Virus record (IMG/VR): IMGVR_UViG_3300042691_055975
DNA length: 64,000 bases
Strand: one strand, 5' to 3'
Source: an uncultured virus (IMG/VR IMGVR_UViG_3300042691_055975)
Taxonomy: Duplodnaviria > Heunggongvirae > Uroviricota > Caudoviricetes
Positions 2,814 to 48,689 of the stretch are shown here, piece by piece; position 1 is the stretch's first letter; each line of letters starts with the position of its first letter. A program made the position numbers and the translations under genes. The notes below the pieces were generated by a model. It saw only the letters and a list, made by a program, of their open reading frames with translations. It did not search any database and was not told the origin of the DNA.

Positions 2814-2995
2814 GACTTGGCGTCCAGCACGGCATGTGCCGACATCATCACCTCGGCGGTCTGCAGGAAGTGCTTGCGCATTTCTTCCTGCCCGCGCCCG
2901 ATGAGGCTGGCGGCAAGCTGCATGTTGAGCGCGGCGGACGCGCGCAGCTGGATCTGGACGATCTCGCGCGACAGTTGCTTGGTGGCGGCGCTCAC
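2810..2995 (-). CDS. Phage hypothetical protein
   Basis: GTGA overlaps at both ends. Confidence 0.5.
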   Translation of the reverse strand: MSAATKQLSREIVQIQLRASAALNMQLAASLIGRGQEEMRKHFLQTAEVMMSAHAVLDAKS

Positions 2996-3315
2996 GACGG
3001 GTTGACCTTGCCGCCGAAGACATCGACGCCCCGTTCGATGAGCGCCGCTGTCCAGAGATCTTTCATCTCCTGGGTGCAATGCTCCATCGCATCGAGCCAG
3101 TTCGGCGCTCGCCCGTGCTCCGCGTTGAAACGCACGGCATAGAACAGGCTCTGGGCATTGTGCGGCAGCTCTGGCTCGTGCTCCGAACCGCACATCTCGC
3201 ACTTGCCTGGCGCGGCCGGCATCATGAACATCGTCGTGGTACCCGGCGTCTCTTCGCCGGTGGTCAAGTCGACCGTCGACATTTTCGTCTCGATCGGGAT
3301 CATGGGACGGGTCAT
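2992..3315 (-). CDS. Phage hypothetical protein (CxxC..H)
   Basis: GGAG Shine-Dalgarno upstream; KCEMCGSEH motif. Confidence 0.6.
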   Translation of the reverse strand: MTRPMIPIETKMSTVDLTTGEETPGTTTMFMMPAAPGKCEMCGSEHEPELPHNAQSLFYAVRFNAEHGRAPNWLDAMEHCTQEMKDLWTAALIERGVDVFGGKVNPS

Positions 3316-41305: not shown

Positions 41306-42255
41306 TTCGCACCTCCATCGGCATCGGGGGATTTGGTGGATGAGAGGGCGCCCACGATTTGCTCAAACTTCGCAGTAGGGATCAGCACATAGCCGGGATG
41401 GTGCGCCTCGCTGGTCATGTAATCATCATCGATGCCTTCGACCGCCTTGCGTAGCTCGTCTTGGGCTGCTCCTATGGCGACAAGCGTAGAAATTACCGCG
41501 TCGGCGGAGTGCAAGGCGTCCGTCCAATTGCCTGTTTTAAAATCCTTGGCGTGCTCCGCTGCCCGAATACCCGCTGACCCCTGAATGATATTGTAGGCGA
41601 TCAACTCTCGATACTCCCGCACCGCATCATCGGGTTGACGCGGCTGGGTGGAGAGGGCTGCGGCAAGTGCAGCGTCCGCCATGCGATAGATGCGCTCGCG
41701 ATGCTCATCAACGTCATGATCTTCGGTCAATGCACCGGGGCATGTGCTGCTATTGCAAGCCTCGCCAACATCGCCGCTGCATTGCTCGTAAATGTCGATA
41801 CCAAGTATTTTGGCGATGGCCTGTGCAGCAGCTTCGCGTCCCGTCCCGTCCGCATCGGCGGCGGGTTGGGAGAGGGCCTGACGGAAATCAGCGACATGCG
41901 CTTCCATCAGTGGATTGTTGCCAGCATCCGCACGGTCGCCATCGTCATAGTCCGCTAGGAAGCGCTGAACAGCCTTGGCCAGCCCCTCACCAGCAACAGC
42001 AGGGTGGGCGTAGAGGGGCGTCTCTTCAACGCCTTCGGGCAACTGTTGCACTCGCCCTTTGTGAAATTCAACGTGGCCGGGCATGGTATACATCCAAGCC
42101 ACAGCCTCACCGGCATCGGGTCGCGAGGATAGGGCGCGCCACTCGTCATCAGCCTTGTGAAGGGCGTCCATGGACGGGAATTTGAACACCATCTCGTATC
42201 GGCCTTCGCCAGAGACAGTCGTGCGAAACGCAGCGCGCAGATTTGGCATACTCAT
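41302..42255 (-). CDS. Mosaic early phage protein
   Basis: EAVAW..ETPLYAHP module typical of modular early genes. Confidence 0.65.
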   Translation of the reverse strand: MSMPNLRAAFRTTVSGEGRYEMVFKFPSMDALHKADDEWRALSSRPDAGEAVAWMYTMPGHVEFHKGRVQQLPEGVEETPLYAHPAVAGEGLAKAVQRFLADYDDGDRADAGNNPLMEAHVADFRQALSQPAADADGTGREAAAQAIAKILGIDIYEQCSGDVGEACNSSTCPGALTEDHDVDEHRERIYRMADAALAAALSTQPRQPDDAVREYRELIAYNIIQGSAGIRAAEHAKDFKTGNWTDALHSADAVISTLVAIGAAQDELRKAVEGIDDDYMTSEAHHPGYVLIPTAKFEQIVGALSSTKSPDADGGAK

Positions 42256-42392
42256 AGCTTGCGGACCTCATAATATTCACCCGCGAACCGGCGCTCGAAC
42301 CACTCCAGCCACAGGATTTCATCGCCGATCTTGACCGGCAGAAAGGCAAAGCGCTTGCGCCAGCCATCGTCTTGCTTAGCGGGCCACTTCAC
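42252..42392 (-). CDS. Small hypothetical protein (46 aa)
   Basis: WRKRFAFLPVKIG..LWLEW; overlap-coupled; not in the ORF track. Confidence 0.55.
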   Translation of the reverse strand: MKWPAKQDDGWRKRFAFLPVKIGDEILWLEWFERRFAGEYYEVRKL

Positions 42393-42427
42393 GGCTCCAG
42401 CGCTTCCACCAGCTTATCGGTCATGGT

Positions 42428-43714
42428 CTACGATCCCTTCTCATCGCGCTCACCGAGCGCCTGGATGTGCTGGCGCCGGACGAGGGCGATGCGCCGCCCC
42501 TTCTCCGCCGTCGCCTTGTTGTAGGTCTGCGTCTGGGCCAGCGTCTTGTGGCCGGAGATGGGCCGGACGTCCGTTTCGCCGGCGTCGCCGATCTCTGTGA
42601 TCCCGCCATGCCGGAAGCCGGTGAAGGTCATCTGCTTGGGCAGGCCCGCCTTGTCGCAGATCCGGCGATGCACGGTTGACATCCACCGCGGGTCGAACGG
42701 CTTGCCGTTCCGCCCGTCCAGGATCATAGCGCCCGTCGGCTGGCCGAACTCATCGCGCGCCGCATACAGGCGCAGCGCCATCAGCTCCGCCTCCAGATCG
42801 GGATAGAGCGCCACCGTCTCGCCTTCGACCTCGATCGTGAGATCGAGCCATACGGGGTTGCCAGTCTTCCGCTGGATCAGCGCCAGGGCGATGCCGGGCT
42901 TGTAGACGGACCATTGCAGGCCCGGCGGCGGCTCGCGCCCCTCCGCCACCGCCTCATCGTCCGGCCAGAAGCCGAAGACGTGGCTGACACGCTGGCAGGC
43001 CTCGAAGCATAGCGCGGCGGCGGCGGCCATGTTCTGATAGCCCATCGCGCGCGCCGTCTCGCGGTAGAGGTCATATTCCGCGCGGCTGGTCGGCCGGTTC
43101 TCGCCCGCGGCGGTGCTGATCAGGCCCATGCCGGCGAAGGGGTTATCCTTGACACCCGTCGTGCGCTTGTGGCGGACAGCCCACTTCCACACCAGGCGGC
43201 AGACCTGCATGGCATAAGTGCCCTCACGGTCGCCCTTCTCGGCCCGCAGCTTGGCATAGAGGGCGTCGGCCGATTCCCCGTCCATGTTGGACGCGAGGCG
43301 ATGGCCCAGCTTGCCGCCGCTCTTCGTGGGATAGGCGACGAGCATGTCCATCAGCCGCCTGTAGTCGCGCTGCGTCTTCGGCCTGTTCTTCGTGAAGCGC
43401 TCCTGGCCGCGATACCAGTCGAACAGCCAGGCGATCGATCCGGGCCGCAGGGTGCGCCGCTCAACGCCGAGCCGCCATTCCTTCAGCGCCTCGTTGAGCG
43501 CCTCCGCCTTCTCGACAGCGCCGTCATGGCTCGTGCCGAGTGCGGTTGACTGGAGCGGGCATAGCGCGCCGTGGCGGACGGCCGGGACCGTCTTGCCGGT
43601 CTTCGCGTCCTTCGCCGTCGCCCAGCTGGGCAGCTTCCAATAATAGGCATAGGCGCCCGAGGCCAGCTTAACGCGGCTGGTATAGGCGGGCAGCCTGACG
43701 ATCGCGTTCGCCAT
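42428..43714 (-). CDS. int: Tyrosine integrase
   Basis: EACQRVSH, IQRKTG, GFRHGGITE, SGHKT..TY. Confidence 0.85.
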   Translation of the reverse strand: MANAIVRLPAYTSRVKLASGAYAYYWKLPSWATAKDAKTGKTVPAVRHGALCPLQSTALGTSHDGAVEKAEALNEALKEWRLGVERRTLRPGSIAWLFDWYRGQERFTKNRPKTQRDYRRLMDMLVAYPTKSGGKLGHRLASNMDGESADALYAKLRAEKGDREGTYAMQVCRLVWKWAVRHKRTTGVKDNPFAGMGLISTAAGENRPTSRAEYDLYRETARAMGYQNMAAAAALCFEACQRVSHVFGFWPDDEAVAEGREPPPGLQWSVYKPGIALALIQRKTGNPVWLDLTIEVEGETVALYPDLEAELMALRLYAARDEFGQPTGAMILDGRNGKPFDPRWMSTVHRRICDKAGLPKQMTFTGFRHGGITEIGDAGETDVRPISGHKTLAQTQTYNKATAEKGRRIALVRRQHIQALGERDEKGS

Positions 43715-43944
43715 CAGAAGTCGATCCCGCCCTTCCCTTCGCGGCCGAACAGGTCGGCAAGCGCAGCGTCGAGTTCGCTCCGCAGCGCGATGGCGGCACC
43801 GCGCGGGCCGCGCGAACGGAACCGCACCTTGCCGACGCGCTCCCACTCCTTCATCTGGTCGGCGCTGACGCCCGTATAGGCGAGCGCCAGGTCGCGGTTC
43901 ATCCCCGCCGGCCAGTCGGGCAGCTTTTCAAGGGCGAGGCCCAT
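43714..43944 (-). CDS. Excisionase-like protein
   Basis: PDWPAGMNRDLALAYTGVS..RSELD; TGATG-coupled to int. Confidence 0.7.
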   Translation of the reverse strand: MGLALEKLPDWPAGMNRDLALAYTGVSADQMKEWERVGKVRFRSRGPRGAAIALRSELDAALADLFGREGKGGIDF

Positions 43945-44212
43945 AGAGCGCCTCCTTGTCCTCAGTCTCGCGGATCGGATCGACGTAGATGGCGAGCTTG
44001 TGGATGACGTCTGTCGGAGCGTTTGGCGCATAGCCAGGCACACACCAATGGGCGACTTCCTTGACCAAAAAGGCAGTGACGCCATGCCGAGCACGCACGT
44101 CCTCGCTTGAGCTAGTGGTTGCCCACAGATACTCACCGACTCGCGGCGGGTGGATGAAGTAAGCCTCAAAGACGTTGGTATCGTCATCGAGCATGATGAT
44201 GCCCTTGATCAT
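43928..44212 (-). CDS. Hypothetical protein
   Basis: Overlap-coupled on both sides. Confidence 0.55.
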   Translation of the reverse strand: MIKGIIMLDDDTNVFEAYFIHPPRVGEYLWATTSSSEDVRARHGVTAFLVKEVAHWCVPGYAPNAPTDVIHKLAIYVDPIRETEDKEALYGPRP

Positions 44213-45324
44213 GCCGCCTCTCCGAACAGCATGCCCTGCCCGCCCACCTCAGGCGCCGAGACGAGCGCTGAGAGATAGGAAGGCATCAGCAGCCACCACC
44301 GGGTCCACGCCATTTCCTGTCGCTCGAAGCCGCTCAACCCGGTGGGCCATCGCATCAATGCCTCGACGAAGATGGGATTGAGCTTCCTCCGAACTGAGGG
44401 CTGGTTGGAGTTCGGGGAATCGGTCGAGGACATCGATCCACCGGCTATCGATCGGTCCGGGGATGACGGCGGGCGGAAGCAATGCTTCACGAAATTGGGA
44501 AGCTGGTCGAGGTGTGCTGATCCGGAACTCACTTCCAGATGTTCCGCCGAGTTCGTGCCCTTGTGATCCCTCGCAGCCGGCGCGGGCCATGTGTTCGCCC
44601 AGCGCTTCGTCGCGTCCATCGCCTGCCCGGTCAGCAACAGTTCGTCCGCTCGGTCCCCGCCCCGCGTCAGCCGGGAGCCGTCCGTCACCGCAACCGATGG
44701 TCCTTCCCATTGGGTTGCCTGCATCGAGAGCGCCGTTCCGCCCTGCCCATACTTCTTCGTCCGTGTCCCCGTATCGTCCGCAACCGGGGCCATCCACTCG
44801 CCGCGCCATGATGAACAGTCGTTCCCGCCGCATGGTATTGCCCGCTCGGGCCGAGCTGAATATTCCCGCCGCAACGCGGTAGCCCAGTCCTTCCAGTGGA
44901 GGCGCGATGGCCTCAAGCTGCTCTTCAGCGTTCCCCGGCACGTTTTCTCGGAAGACAAGATCAGGCCGGCACTCCTCGGCAAGGCGCGTGACTTCGGCGG
45001 CAAGGAACCGCTCGCCGTCTGCCCCTGCCCGCTTTCCGGCGACGCTGTTGTCTTGGCAGGGATCGCCCGAAGCGAGGATATGAACTGCTCCGCGCCATGG
45101 TCGAGCGTCGAAGGTGAGCATGTCAGACCAGACAGGCGCCGGATGAAGCCACCCCGCTTCCATTGACGCGACCAAGCTTGCGGCTGCAGCGGCTTCCCTC
45201 TCCACGTAGCAGACGCCTCGGCCAGCCTCTCCCCGATGGTGGAGAGCGAGCAGGATGCCGAGTTCAAGTCCTCCGACGCCTGCGCAGAGTGAGAGGATAT
45301 TCCGGGGATGTAGAGCCATGTCAC
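44209..45324 (-). CDS. Alternative-frame partner (beta-like subunit) of the C5 methyltransferase
   Basis: WPAPAARDHKG and motif IX-like RKLNPIFVEALMRWPTG; 4-bp overlaps with both flanking genes. Confidence 0.7.
   Translation of the reverse strand: MTWLYIPGISSHSAQASEDLNSASCSLSTIGERLAEASATWRGKPLQPQAWSRQWKRGGFIRRLSGLTCSPSTLDHGAEQFISSLRAIPAKTTASPESGQGQTASGSLPPKSRALPRSAGLILSSEKTCRGTLKSSLRPSRLHWKDWATALRREYSARPERAIPCGGNDCSSWRGEWMAPVADDTGTRTKKYGQGGTALSMQATQWEGPSVAVTDGSRLTRGGDRADELLLTGQAMDATKRWANTWPAPAARDHKGTNSAEHLEVSSGSAHLDQLPNFVKHCFRPPSSPDRSIAGGSMSSTDSPNSNQPSVRRKLNPIFVEALMRWPTGLSGFERQEMAWTRWWLLMPSYLSALVSAPEVGGQGMLFGEAA
44249..45319 (-). CDS. C5 cytosine DNA methyltransferase (alpha-like subunit)
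   Basis: SLCAGVGG (I), GDPCQ (IV), ENV (VI), RRERLF (VIII), RLRATGNGV (X). Confidence 0.9.
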   Translation of the reverse strand: MALHPRNILSLCAGVGGLELGILLALHHRGEAGRGVCYVEREAAAAASLVASMEAGWLHPAPVWSDMLTFDARPWRGAVHILASGDPCQDNSVAGKRAGADGERFLAAEVTRLAEECRPDLVFRENVPGNAEEQLEAIAPPLEGLGYRVAAGIFSSARAGNTMRRERLFIMARRVDGPGCGRYGDTDEEVWAGRNGALDAGNPMGRTIGCGDGRLPADAGRGPSGRTVADRAGDGRDEALGEHMARAGCEGSQGHELGGTSGSEFRISTPRPASQFREALLPPAVIPGPIDSRWIDVLDRFPELQPALSSEEAQSHLRRGIDAMAHRVERLRATGNGVDPVVAADAFLSLSARLGA

Positions 45325-46202
45325 GCAGCCTCTCCAACGGACTGAAAGAGAGGGCCGGCATGCATCGCCGCAACCGCCGGCGGGTTGATCCAAAGGCACT
45401 CTGTTCGTGGGCTGTTCCGGTGGGCGCGCGCGGCAATTTCTTTGCGGGCCCAGCCTGGCAGATTCCTATCGTAAGAAGGGTCAGGATAGCCAGACAGGAC
45501 GATCATGGCAGAGCTATCGCGGCAAACATCCAGCAGCTCTCGATGGTCTTCGTCACACATCTCGAAAGCGTAGGTGTGATAACGCTCCCCCGACTTCCTG
45601 CTCTTCGTAGACCTAGTCGCCGGCAGGTAAGGGGGATCGAGATAAATCAGGGTGTCTTCTGACGATAATTTCTTGATCAGCTCGATAGCGGGGCGCTGCT
45701 CGATGCTGACGCCACGCATTCGTTCAACCACTGCATGCAGCGCATCGGGAAGATCAGCCCACTCGCCCGCGACGTTTGTGGTAGCGGTGACGCCATCAGT
45801 ACGAAATCCGGTCGGCCGGTCCATCCGAGCTCCGCCGGTTCCATGCGCCATATGCGATCTGACAACAGTGCGGCGCGCGCGCTCAATTGGCTCGTCGGTA
45901 AGCACGAATGCTGCCCAATATTCTTCCCGGCTATAAGGCGTCAGCGTTAACTGCCTTAGAAGTTCCGGCGCCTCGGAGCTCCGCAGGACGCGGAACAGAT
46001 TGACGAGTTCGCCATCGAGGTCGTTATACACCTCGTTATAGGCACGTGGCTTGTGCAGGAGCACTGACGCAGCACCGCCAAACGGTTCGATATAGATCCG
46101 ATGCGCGGGAAAATGACTGACAATCCACGGAGCTAGACGAAACTTGCCGCCGAGCCAGCGTAGCAATGGGCGAGATGGAGGCAGTACGCTGTCAGGCATC
46201 AA
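45321..46202 (-). CDS. Dam-like (D12 class) adenine methyltransferase
   Basis: WLGGK, EPFGGAASV, YNDLD, YLDPPY. Confidence 0.92.
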   Translation of the reverse strand: MMPDSVLPPSRPLLRWLGGKFRLAPWIVSHFPAHRIYIEPFGGAASVLLHKPRAYNEVYNDLDGELVNLFRVLRSSEAPELLRQLTLTPYSREEYWAAFVLTDEPIERARRTVVRSHMAHGTGGARMDRPTGFRTDGVTATTNVAGEWADLPDALHAVVERMRGVSIEQRPAIELIKKLSSEDTLIYLDPPYLPATRSTKSRKSGERYHTYAFEMCDEDHRELLDVCRDSSAMIVLSGYPDPSYDRNLPGWARKEIAARAHRNSPRTECLWINPPAVAAMHAGPLFQSVGEAA

Positions 46203-46621
46203 TCCGGCCTCCCGATCATTTCATTGTGAACATGGACGAGCGCGCTGATCGCGGCCGAGGCCTCGTCATTTTCGCCGAAGCTGACGAGCACGGTGCGGTC
46301 GGCCGGATCCTCATCGCTCAGGGCGACGATGTGCAGGCCGCGCCCCTGCCAGACCTCGTCGTCGGCCAGTTCGCCCGGGTGCCGATGGCTCTCCGCCCAT
46401 CGCTTGCCGTAGTTGGCGCGCAGCGCGTCGCAGGCGACGTCGAACGGGTCGGGCGGATATTGCGGAACGCCCTCTTCAGCGCAGAGCTTGCACAGCGCCG
46501 CACGGCGCGGGCACACCACATAGCGCCCGTCATATTGCTTGGTGGCATGCGCTGGGCCGTATTTCGACATGACGATGATCACGGCGGCCCGGTCGGTGAC
46601 GTCGGCGCCGAACTTAGCCAT
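46199..46621 (-). CDS. Hypothetical protein
   Basis: Overlap-coupled; GGAG Shine-Dalgarno. Confidence 0.55.
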   Translation of the reverse strand: MAKFGADVTDRAAVIIVMSKYGPAHATKQYDGRYVVCPRRAALCKLCAEEGVPQYPPDPFDVACDALRANYGKRWAESHRHPGELADDEVWQGRGLHIVALSDEDPADRTVLVSFGENDEASAAISALVHVHNEMIGRPD

Positions 46622-46913
46622 GCTCGCCCTCTCCCGGCGCAGCGACACGCAAATCGATGTCCATGCCAATCGCCGTCTTCACAGCCTGGGCGACCGCTGC
46701 GGTGTCGATCGTCACCGGCGAAGCAGGCTCGGCAACATCGATGCGCGCGATAATGCTGGGCGCTTCGAACAGCGCCAGCGGCAGCGTCATCTTGACGTTG
46801 ATGGCCCGCTCGCCGCGGCTCAGCGCAGGCTCGATGCTGGTGACAGCCTTCGCATCGTCGCCCTTTTCAAGGATCAGGTCGCCGGCGATTGCGCCCTTGT
46901 AGGTCTTTGCCAT
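46614..46913 (-). CDS. Hypothetical protein
   Basis: GAGG Shine-Dalgarno; overlaps the next gene. Confidence 0.6.
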   Translation of the reverse strand: MAKTYKGAIAGDLILEKGDDAKAVTSIEPALSRGERAINVKMTLPLALFEAPSIIARIDVAEPASPVTIDTAAVAQAVKTAIGMDIDLRVAAPGEGEHG

Positions 46914-47327
46914 GGTCAGATTTCCTCGTTCAAAGCGCACGGCACGATGCCGGCAAGGTCGCTGGAGCAAACGACGCAGTCGCACTCGTCACCCGGATCG
47001 GATTGTTTGGCGGACCGACCGGCCTCGACGGCCGATCCACCAGGGCGGGGAGACGATCCCGGGAGGGGGGGCAGGATCGCCCGATGCTTCTACCCGGAGC
47101 GCGGACAGGGGGTTGGCGCGCTGGTCGGGCAGATTGGGAATGGTGGCGGCTCGGGCGCGCAGGAAGCGGCGGAAGGCGATGTGGGCGACGTCGATCACAG
47201 CCCCGCCCCCATCGTCGCGCGCAGCAGGGTTGCGGCCAGCTTGAACATGCCGCACCACAGCGCCGCGCCGCAGAGGGCCATGATCGCGAGCGCAACCGGA
47301 TGGATCGCCATCGCCGGCATTTCAGGT

Positions 47328-47474
47328 TCATCGTCCATGGCGCGCGCTCCCCGGAATCGGCTCGAAATTGAGCGCCGCGACGATCTTGTCGACGCTGTCG
47401 CAAAGCTCGCGCAGGATGAGCGCGCAGGCGAGGATGCCGGCGGCACAGATGGGCGGGGCGAAGACGGCGGCCAT
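47328..47474 (-). CDS. Small hydrophobic protein (48 aa)
   Basis: TGATG-coupled; followed by a second small TM ORF ending at 47195. Confidence 0.45.
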   Translation of the reverse strand: MAAVFAPPICAAGILACALILRELCDSVDKIVAALNFEPIPGSARHGR

Positions 47475-47761
47475 CACCCGACAGCCCGGATCGGCGTGAC
47501 GTTGGCGCGCGGCGCGCCCTGCGCCTCAAGCTGCTCAGCGGCTCGGATCAGGCGGCTGGCACCGTTGATAAGGAACTCGCGAGCAGTGGCGGCGTCGGTC
47601 AGCAGCAGCTCGTGCGCCTCGCCCACCGCGTAGCCCGCGATGTTGATCAGATAGACCGTGCGGAGACCGTTGTCGCAGTGCTGCAGGTTGCGCAGGCGTT
47701 CAAGGGTAAGAGCCGCCGCAGGGCTCGCAGCATAATGCGGCACGTATGTCGGGACGCGCAT
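47474..47761 (-). CDS. First early-left gene of phage 2
   Basis: GGGGAG Shine-Dalgarno; downstream of the operators. Confidence 0.6.
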   Translation of the reverse strand: MRVPTYVPHYAASPAAALTLERLRNLQHCDNGLRTVYLINIAGYAVGEAHELLLTDAATAREFLINGASRLIRAAEQLEAQGAPRANVTPIRAVG

Positions 47762-47822
47762 GGTGATCTCCCCGCCGTCTCGCGACCCGGCACGATGCGC
47801 GGGTGGTCAGGCGATGGAGATT

Positions 47823-47876
47823 AGTTCCCATAAAAGGAACTTGCCTGTCAACCGAAAAGTTCCCTTTGAAGGAACT
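47823..47876 (-). promoter_or_regulatory. OL-like operators of phage 2
   Basis: 19-bp palindromes AGTTCC-N7-GGAACT at 47823-47841 and 47858-47876, flanking a minus-strand TTGACA. Confidence 0.8.
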
Positions 47877-48112
47877 GCCTTTCAATGCTACCTTTGCGGC
47901 CTGATTTAAATTGCCACAGGCGATGTAGAAAAGTGAGCATGTCGTATCGATCGCCCAATTTGACAGGCACTGACCGCCCTCGATGCAATTGGATACAGAC
48001 CGTCATGAAGGCGGGCGCGGGCTACAACAGAATATGCGTAGCGGGATGCGCCACACCCTGCCGTCAAATCAGATTTTCCGAAATATGGGTGGACCTAGAG
48101 CGATTTCAGAAC

Positions 48113-48385
48113 TTATTCGGCACCAAGAACCCGCCGGATGTGGCGTTCCTGGGCCGCATCAATCCGCTGCTCAAGATCCGCAAAGCTGACGATCCGCTCG
48201 CGGCACTTCTCGCACTCGACCCAACTATCTTTGGCTGGATCGACGGGACGGATGAACATGAGATGCCCACATTGGAAGCACTTACGCTCGTCGGGGAGTA
48301 TGCAAGCAGCTTCACTGTGCCACTGGAACACTATCCAGTCAGGGTCGTCGTCAAACCATCCGAAATAGCGGAATAGATTATCCAT
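48113..48385 (-). CDS. Zn-ribbon protein coupled to the repressor gene
   Basis: CFQC..CEKC; 8-nt overlap with the repressor 3' end. Confidence 0.5.
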   Translation of the reverse strand: MDNLFRYFGWFDDDPDWIVFQWHSEAACILPDERKCFQCGHLMFIRPVDPAKDSWVECEKCRERIVSFADLEQRIDAAQERHIRRVLGAE

Positions 48386-48689
48386 CGGTGCCCGTTCGGT
48401 CCGATACCAGTTTCAGGCGTTCGCCGAGTTCTGCGACCGGGCCCGCATCAGCCATCAACTTTCGGATTGCCATGGCATCATCGGGGTGCATTAGCAATTC
48501 ATAGGGTCGCAGCCTTAGGACCTGGGTGGCCAGTGCGAGATGATCGCGGTTCCAGCGCGTTTTGCGATTGACCAGCTGATTGGCAATGCGATGAGTCCAC
48601 CCGGTTTCGCTCTCCAATTTGGCAATGGAGACGTTGAGCGACCCTAGCCACTCTTTAAGATACCAATCGTGCGTGGGCCGTGATGCCAT
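48378..48689 (-). CDS. XRE-type CI-like repressor, no S24 domain
   Basis: WYLKEW..AKLESETGW..QLVN..PYELLMHP; divergent from cro. Confidence 0.75.
   Translation of the reverse strand: MASRPTHDWYLKEWLGSLNVSIAKLESETGWTHRIANQLVNRKTRWNRDHLALATQVLRLRPYELLMHPDDAMAIRKLMADAGPVAELGERLKLVSDRTGTDG

Follow-up and report, generated by a model that had tools for sequence, protein, structure and literature searches.

Can one kilobase of phage DNA encode both chains of a single DNA methyltransferase, read in two frames of the same strand? The locus that raises this question lies in a 64,000-nucleotide stretch of an uncultured caudoviricete (IMG/VR record IMGVR_UViG_3300042691_055975; hereafter the window). 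There, a C5 methyltransferase open reading frame (ORF), alpha, is enclosed at both ends by a second ORF, beta, in its +1 frame: beta starts 5 nt earlier and ends 40 nt later (Table 1). An initial annotation had placed alpha (44249-45319) wholly inside this 371-residue ORF, had seen the latter overlap the stop of a dam-like gene and the start of the next gene, and had read the pair as an extreme version of M.EcoHK31I, a two-chain enzyme said to go back to Lee, Kam and Shaw in 1995. Both ORFs and both overlaps are present: the dam-like TGA (45321-45323) overlaps the beta GTG, the alpha ATG follows 1 nt after that TGA, and the beta TGA overlaps the ATG (44212) of the next gene. On sequence comparison and structure prediction, the locus probably encodes an orphan C5 methyltransferase of a temperate phage, built like M.EcoHK31I from two chains specified by one DNA stretch. 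Judging from the sequences, it is very likely that both chains are translated and that the methylase is active.

We asked whether the beta frame is open by chance or kept. Our null model fixed the residues of one frame and drew codons from 11 genes in the window. Applied to this single locus, it gives P = 0.0075 for the +1 frame staying open across all of alpha and P = 0.07 for the beta frame staying open over motifs I–VIII; the longest open run in shifted frames of the 11 genes was 210 codons. We then scored related loci. Of 34 chosen by alpha peptides alone, 33 have motif I in view. Among these 33, 31 loci (29 of 31 distinct sequences) keep an uninterrupted beta frame beginning ahead of motif I and reaching motif IX. 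Across 35 distinct loci, related to one another and 13 of them found via beta, beta-frame stops over motifs I–VIII number 0 against 93 expected from the codon null, and alpha-frame stops over the cassettes described below number 0 against 166 expected; this count excludes L037, L038, the truncated L020, L055 and duplicates. A beta start codon (ATG, GTG or TTG) stands 1–3 codons ahead of a conserved Trp in all 45 distinct loci scored.

Computation shows that both frames are open and selected, with selection divided by zone. In a position-variation test of 29 loci of the close clade, the I–VIII zone varies most at the alpha third position (0.315 versus 0.147 and 0.184), and same-type cassettes vary most at the beta third position (0.415 versus 0.198 and 0.151). 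Same-type cassettes are 76% identical in beta and 48% in alpha, and four-fold-site divergence in the cassette zone is 0.438 at beta sites and 0.032 at alpha sites. Selection in the cassette zone is on beta, and alpha there is an unstructured spacer. The IX–X zone is tight in both frames, with beta 98% conserved over NPIFVEALMRWP.

In the I–VIII zone, alpha four-fold sites diverge by 0.324 overall, only modestly under single-coded controls (0.40–0.42 for the control integrase versus 0.28–0.32 for the same two pairs; 0.30–0.35 for a second control gene). Yet 25 of the 85 alpha four-fold columns in this zone are frozen, 9 of them on A or T despite a third-position GC content of 0.77, and the columns frozen on A or T give Leu, Trp and Glu in beta. 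Columns frozen in 29/29 loci include alpha P60 (CCT), G150 (GGA), and A81 and V147 (both with T), which yield beta L, E, L and L, respectively. Because of these frozen columns, we read the N-terminal half of beta as selected in blocks (approximately residues 3–7, 41–66, 72–90, 118–128 and 144–158) and free between them.

Conservation of beta also extends past the end of alpha. The window's beta ends in QGMLF, which begins 14 nt downstream of the final alpha codon, in sequence under no other constraint. The pattern Qxx[LIM][FL], chosen after the tails were seen, occurs within the last 16 residues in 193 of 244 complete beta tails (292 examined), as against a mean of 9 and a maximum of 19 matches in 300 shuffles and 1 of 120 alpha tails. 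This conserved tail beyond the alpha stop, in otherwise unconstrained sequence, argues that beta is read to its end. In L004, L026 and L041, beta continues 500–820 nt beyond the alpha stop.

These results bear directly on the possibility that beta is not translated and simply shadows a GC-rich gene, with alpha working alone or decaying. The P of 0.07 over motifs I–VIII in the window would allow it, as would the fact that the conserved beta Trp (W3) is in most loci the shadow of the alpha start codon. It leaves unexplained all of the selection tests, the conservation of motif IX in beta and the conserved motif beyond the alpha stop, and we regard it as extremely improbable.

The beta tail suggests a function. 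Its second position is mostly G or M and its third mostly D or S, and the C-terminal Q-x-[DS]-L-F consensus of the 193 tails resembles the bacterial sliding-clamp-binding pentapeptide, given as QL(S/D)LF in the accessible text of PMC9690074. From this likeness, the tail rather likely binds the host sliding clamp, an arrangement in which new phage DNA would be methylated at the fork. A further clamp-type motif, QADLF, lies near the C-terminus of a third methylase of the phage (50210-51091, plus strand, phrog_67).

Alpha carries the marks of a catalytic C5 methyltransferase chain. It matches Pfam PF00145 over residues 7–176 only (E 1.5e-19), has the catalytic PC, ENV and RxR as well as S-adenosylmethionine-binding motifs I and X, and is predicted to adopt a class I fold that structure comparison matches to M.HhaI and other C5 methylases. 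In 96/96 alphas, E40, P87-C88-Q89, E125-N126-V127, R165 and R167 are invariant, and G335-N336 is at least 90% conserved. AlphaFold gives residues 179–284 a predicted local distance difference test (pLDDT) score below 50, and the spacer ranges from 101 to 259 residues and tracks cassette number. One alpha homologue of 724 residues (P0232) carries PF13403, presumably a Hint-type domain, and probably contains an intein.

The initial annotation had called the alpha motifs LCAG, GDPC and NTMRR atypical, and so they are. Their odd residues C12, D86 and N161 (motifs I, IV and VIII) are at least 90% conserved in the 96 alphas and hence selected. On sequence comparison, these odd motifs are traits of the clade and not decay, and because relatives sharing the whole-length overlap carry canonical LFAG, GFPC and GAPH, double coding does not force them. 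The same two facts, conservation here and canonical motifs in relatives with the same overlap, could instead point to altered chemistry, with another cofactor or base modification, or to a dead DNA-binding enzyme. Against this stand the invariant catalytic residues, the conserved G335-N336 and the match of the fold to M.HhaI and other C5 methylases, and no cofactor-making gene was recognised among the 17 nearby ORFs tested; we consider such a change improbable.

Beta matches phrog_1008, "DNA methyltransferase" (E 1.7e-13), and no family in Pfam or NCBIfam. Searches of Protein Data Bank (PDB) sequences gave weak, unrelated matches only; one of these, to MS2 coat protein (best E 0.004), was considered and rejected. 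A fold search with the beta model, itself poor, reached a best Z of 2.9 with nothing usable. In the ESM Atlas, beta residues 170–345 hit unnamed viral clusters and one automatically named C5 methylase cluster, which we treat as a lead only.

Three W-x-x-P repeats of beta (WMAP at 177, WEGP at 206 and WPAP at 246) and the motif IX-like RKLNPIFVEALMRWP (313–327), all noticed at the outset, are present, and the repeats open a series of cassettes. A regular-expression parser, some of whose boundaries are off, recovered 660 cassettes from 155 of 158 betas, mostly 28–41 residues long and 1–7 per chain (3–6 in 152 betas), with the consensus W-x-x-P-x-A-x-D ... L-x-x-Q-A. They fall into 77 clusters and form 148 distinct arrays in the 155 betas, and 16 pairs of common types occur in both orders. 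Where two alphas are at least 85% identical over motifs I–VIII (78 pairs), the betas never have the same array, and the window and L067, 93% identical, have no cassette type in common. By local alignment, the window's three types reappear at 52–71% identity in scaffolds that are 36–48% alike. Because arrays differ among close alphas while types recur in distant scaffolds, we conclude that cassettes are exchanged units kept as protein. In the closely related phages L108 and L118, a G-run in the cassette zone differs and the frames change, reflecting either a switch or a sequencing error.

What might the cassettes do? The variable region of C5 methylases lies between motifs VIII and IX. The cassettes occupy this position, alpha has nothing conserved there, and orphan enzymes of Bacillus phages offer an analogy; we therefore read the cassettes as putatively DNA-recognising. 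By that analogy, we lean slightly towards the view that they are alternative target-recognition modules, which would make the enzyme multispecific and protect the phage against several host restriction enzymes. The initial annotation had suggested modular recognition units; modularity and exchange hold up in the arrays and types, and neither sequence nor fold comparison linked the cassettes to a known target-recognition domain (TRD).

That missing match, together with the cassettes being unplaced in the predicted complex, would also suit a two-chain enzyme whose cassettes bind DNA loosely or bind host proteins. Alternatively, only the last cassette might recognise DNA: types 1, 9, 12, 22 and 27 occur in last position only, as classes of their own (type 12 in 15/15 cases). 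Either version would leave the enzyme with one specificity or a relaxed one, and relaxed specificity is seen in other phage C5 methylases of a different family, according to the available part of PMC5537653. That source does not describe a two-gene phage C5 methylase. Such non-target roles sit poorly with the inner cassettes, whose beta-frame purifying selection equals that of the last ones in strength, with the recurrence of types across distant scaffolds, and with the occupied VIII–IX position opposite an unconserved alpha. We consider them a real but less likely alternative to target recognition.

The initial annotation had proposed a structure prediction of the alpha–beta complex. Computed from alignments of 95 and 99 rows, this complex scores 0.90, and the best of 3 controls scores 0.02; as a yardstick, 116 of 157 solved complexes attain the mark, as do 2 of 215 mismatched pairs, and with alignments of our own these counts are approximate. 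At least 68% of contacts are common to the runs, and beta pLDDT is at least 58. By computation, then, the complex is predicted with confidence. The predicted interface includes beta residues 1–8, 34–43, 60–65, 78–88, 113–125 and 139–164, roughly matching the selected blocks, and these interface parts (1–164) have no solved relative by sequence. Frozen columns make up 10/19 at the predicted interface and 15/66 elsewhere (p = 0.02). That both chains are made and needed is supported by the selection tests and this predicted complex. The M.EcoHK31I-like reading of the initial annotation, with motif IX in the +1 frame, is supported by the open-frame null, selection by zone, the predicted complex and an alignable beta helix; it had lacked the clamp-type tail and the placement of the variable region in beta, unlike M.EcoHK31I.

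Several observations weigh against the two-chain reading or parts of it. Some loci are broken. In L037 and L038, the two other alpha-chosen loci, beta is open over motifs I–VIII and the frames swap among cassettes; L074, added later, has a 58-nt deletion and a frame swap; and the near-identical pair L077/L078 has one alpha stop in the spacer. In L091, alpha stops short after motif VIII, 7 cassettes make up the beta array and a motif X piece stands under its own ATG (L091 1100–2800), a three-piece form that, from its sequence, fits either a dispensable spacer or a broken gene. The complex score may partly reflect likeness to solved single-chain C5 methylases, above all between beta 311–355 and alpha motif X; frozen columns are weakly enriched at the interface (p = 0.06 when the cut-off is loosened); the cassettes lie outside the confident interface; and beta alone folds poorly (predicted template modelling score 0.22). 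A cassette profile, short and weak, had 0 matches in PDB sequences and none to the phi3T/SPbeta methylase (L050). QGMLF of the window fits QL(S/D)LF loosely, and the clamp-type tail is absent in the 7 betaproteobacterial-type loci scored. Lastly, part of the likeness of beta to its M.EcoHK31I counterpart is forced by alpha motifs VI–VIII in the other frame.

The broken loci also touch on a different solution, a programmed +1 frameshift after motif VIII that would give one chain of motifs I–VIII, cassettes and IX, while a separate product would provide motif X. The motifs stand on the DNA in single-chain order, natural in-frame fusions of I–VIII to cassettes and IX exist (L038, L074, L118 and P0389), and G-run length differs between L108 and L118. 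A frameshift leaves unexplained why beta has its own start in 45/45 loci, why beta is selected residue by residue over motifs I–VIII and why alpha stays open through the cassettes. In the observed fusions, motif X is no longer part of the chain, and the beta of M.EcoHK31I starts independently, according to the accessible text of PMC2836561. We judge a frameshift about as improbable as altered chemistry and favour two separately started chains.

The layout does not appear to be a sequence error, because contigs of three runs match parts of the gene, including the cassette zone, with 0 differences; the best-covering run may be the source sample. The contigs aligned to the gene contain no joint or cassette variant. 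L059 is 100% identical to the window locus and may itself be the source sample. None of the sequencing runs matching the gene is listed as RNA type. The closest named relatives are from Novosphingobium, Sphingopyxis and Sphingobium.

A division of labour between the two chains may be envisaged. Ribosomes finishing the dam-like gene would start at the beta GTG or at the alpha ATG 5 nt further on. Alpha would supply the catalytic domain of motifs I–VIII and then run as a floppy spacer through the cassette zone to motif X. The N-terminal half of beta would wrap alpha with several short helices, and the rest of the chain would carry the variable WxxP array, contribute the motif IX that completes the fold and end in the QxxLF tail.

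How common is this arrangement? We scanned viral contigs by the motif IX pattern alone and scored the best 80 of 522 confirmed matches, a ranking that favours relatives of the query; the census takes in ENS variants of motif VI. Among these 80, motifs I–VIII and X occupy one frame and IX the +1 frame in 71 of the 74 loci with catalytic motifs in view, and 52 of those 71 nested loci have a beta frame already open ahead of motif I. Whole-length overlap is thus, on sequence comparison, the commonest form among related phage loci and not an extreme, and the initial annotation's "extreme version" does not stand as a rarity. No clean single-chain form, with I–VIII, cassettes, IX and X in one frame, was found among the 74 loci scored from these best 80 of 522 matches. 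The beta profile matches 12,427 protein clusters (50% identity) at E up to 0.001, a count that includes weak, unverified matches, and 1,756 at 1e-30.

Annotation usually calls one frame: GenBank calls the nested gene in K1ind3 and Shelly and leaves it out in Alfacinha1, phi1026b and Yong-M2-251. A recoded clone of the called gene would therefore lack its partner. A literature search, whose coverage lay outside most subscription journals and REBASE, found no paper on this phage family; the accessible part of PMC6070908 lists two methylase genes and does not discuss nesting. Streptococcus phage P0091 (L047 1655-2074) and Mycobacterium phage HokkenD (L048 ~2900-3050) have a +1 piece ending SLSDILE..KYFLS that resembles residues 64–80 of the M.EcoHK31I-like beta, with motif IX elsewhere, another frame split of the enzyme.

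More speculatively, the locus may represent an extensive and little-described class of methylases, encoded by phages in genes that are coded twice over their whole length. In this class, an overprinted chain would embrace the catalytic domain, and exchangeable specificity cassettes of about 30 residues, swapped between distant phages, and a clamp tether would provide replication-coupled, multispecific anti-restriction methylation. To our knowledge, same-strand overlaps of a whole kilobase, selected in both frames, are rare in DNA phages. If the cassettes set targets, they would be the smallest exchangeable C5 methylase recognition modules and would help explain how temperate phages track host restriction; if the class exists as proposed, it would form a natural library of programmable modules. 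The clamp tail, if real, would parallel DNMT1–PCNA, a functional counterpart of a clamp-tethered methylase. How a protein segment moves between reading frames could also be tested directly at this locus.

The gene neighbourhood fits a phage setting. Among 17 neighbouring ORFs scanned are an integrase, a small regulator, two further methylases, a RusA-like resolvase and an endolysin, and because of these we take the phage to be temperate. The window holds two integrases (4-1200 and 42428-43714, both minus strand). No restriction nuclease was recognised among the scanned neighbours, which include some small ORFs without a family, and no sigma-70-like promoter was found in 42000-48500. The dam-like protein (45321-45335) and beta (44209-44223), both on the minus strand, end in GEAA-stop, as do many related betas, and the coding GGAGAGG doubles as a likely ribosome-binding site for the following start.

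Table 1. Features of the alpha/beta locus and its surroundings in the window.
Feature	Coordinates	Strand	Remarks
Alpha, C5 methyltransferase catalytic chain	44249..45319	-	356 aa; ATG 45319, stop 44249; motifs I-VIII and X, without IX
Alpha LCAGVGG (residues 11-17)	45269..45289	-	Motif I
Alpha motif IV GDPCQ (85-89)	45053..45067	-	Catalytic Cys88; aligns to M.HhaI GFPCQ
Alpha motif VI ENV (125-127)	44939..44947	-	
Alpha motif VIII NTMRRERLF (161-169)	44813..44839	-	
Alpha spacer (179-282)	44474..44785	-	Cassettes read in the alpha frame, rich in G, R and A; disordered by prediction
Alpha motif X GNGVDP (335-340)	44300..44317	-	Followed by C-terminal helix
Beta chain	44209..45324	-	371 aa; GTG 45324, stop 44209; +1 frame of alpha
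Beta N-terminal WLYIP	45304..45318	-	Conserved; on predicted interface
Beta helix HWKDWATALRREY (143-155)	44860..44898	-	Aligns to M.EcoHK31I-like beta 36-48; on predicted interface
Beta cassette 1 (177-205)	44710..44796	-	WMAP at 177; type 7
Beta cassette 2 (206-245)	44590..44709	-	WEGP at 206; type 2
Beta cassette 3 (246-281)	44482..44589	-	WPAP at 246; type 12
Beta motif IX-like RKLNPIFVEALMRWP (313-327)	44344..44388	-	
Beta C-terminal QGMLF (363-367)	44224..44238	-	Sliding-clamp-type pentapeptide beyond alpha stop; putative binding
Shared start region	45317..45335	-	GGAGAGG purine tract, beta GTG 45324, alpha ATG 45319; putative ribosome use
Dam-like (D12 class) N6-adenine methyltransferase	45321..46199	-	Upstream neighbour
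Downstream operon	42428..44212	-	94-aa ORF, small regulator, integrase
94-aa ORF	43928-44212	-	Without family
Small regulator	43714-43944	-	phrog_25900
Integrase	42428-43714	-	

How does the locus relate to known systems? The multispecific C5 methyltransferases of Bacillus phages SPR, phi3T and rho11, in which module function was reportedly proven (Trautner et al. 1996), are likewise encoded by phages as orphans and carry exchangeable modules in tandem between motifs VIII and IX. They are single chains in one frame, whereas here the modules are in beta and their function is putative. Closer in architecture are K1ind3 ORF29 ("putative Mte8-like protein") and Paenibacillus phage Shelly gp56 ("g55 internal gene"), nested +1 ORFs with WPTP cassettes and an LNP..W.MG motif IX inside a C5 methylase. 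They differ in that these betas start inside alpha, giving a partial overlap, and are known from annotation alone; we did not take the "Mte8-like" label to mean M.EcoHK31I. M.AquI (CYCGRG), according to the accessible text of PMC3404938, is a two-polypeptide C5 methyltransferase whose second chain bears the recognition region together with motif IX. The present locus shares that distribution and differs in that motif X lies on the small chain of M.AquI and on alpha here, and in that M.AquI lacks nesting. Genes 38/39 of Gordonia phage Camerico (L045 1534-2380) form an AquI-like split, in which the second gene, called hypothetical, has one PTP cassette, IX and X.

The nearest counterpart is M.EcoHK31I (E. 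coli HK31, YGGCCR). In the available text of PMC2836561 and PMC3404938, it is an alpha/beta C5 methyltransferase whose alpha holds motifs I–VIII, X and a predicted TRD, whose beta holds only IX, and which needs both; PMC2836561 adds that beta has its own start and that activity is lost, and protection falls, from beta deletion 37 on. A published primer matched E. coli locus L161, beside a NotI-family nuclease, with an alpha of 309 aa and a +1 beta of 176 aa that begins at alpha codon 104 and has no WxxP cassettes. RefSeq calls alpha only at L161 2514-3443, and 80 of 5,426 E. coli genomes contained a match to the primer. Residues 7–64 of this M.EcoHK31I-like beta align to window beta 115–171, with W37 on W144; the helix holding this residue is frozen and belongs to the predicted interface. 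In a one-sequence search, the beta profile matches the M.EcoHK31I-like beta at E 1e-4 and 1e-9, over residues 2–67 only and partly forced by alpha motifs.

The window locus thus resembles M.EcoHK31I in having I–VIII and X in alpha and IX in a +1 beta from the same DNA, and in the alignable beta helix W..(W/S)..A(L/F)R.EY. It differs in several respects. The TRD is assigned to alpha in M.EcoHK31I, whereas here the variable region is in beta and the VIII–X middle of alpha is unconstrained and disordered; the 176-aa beta there is nested in alpha, whereas here a 371-aa beta encloses alpha; and a restriction nuclease is adjacent there, whereas here an orphan phage gene lies beside a dam-like methylase, small ORFs and an integrase. 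Because it departs from the TRD-in-alpha, nested-beta and cognate-nuclease features, we regard the locus as a variant, and not a member, of the M.EcoHK31I type. It is set apart in that beta spans all of alpha, that the variable region has moved to beta as cassettes of 28–41 residues, and that beta ends in a QxxLF tail.

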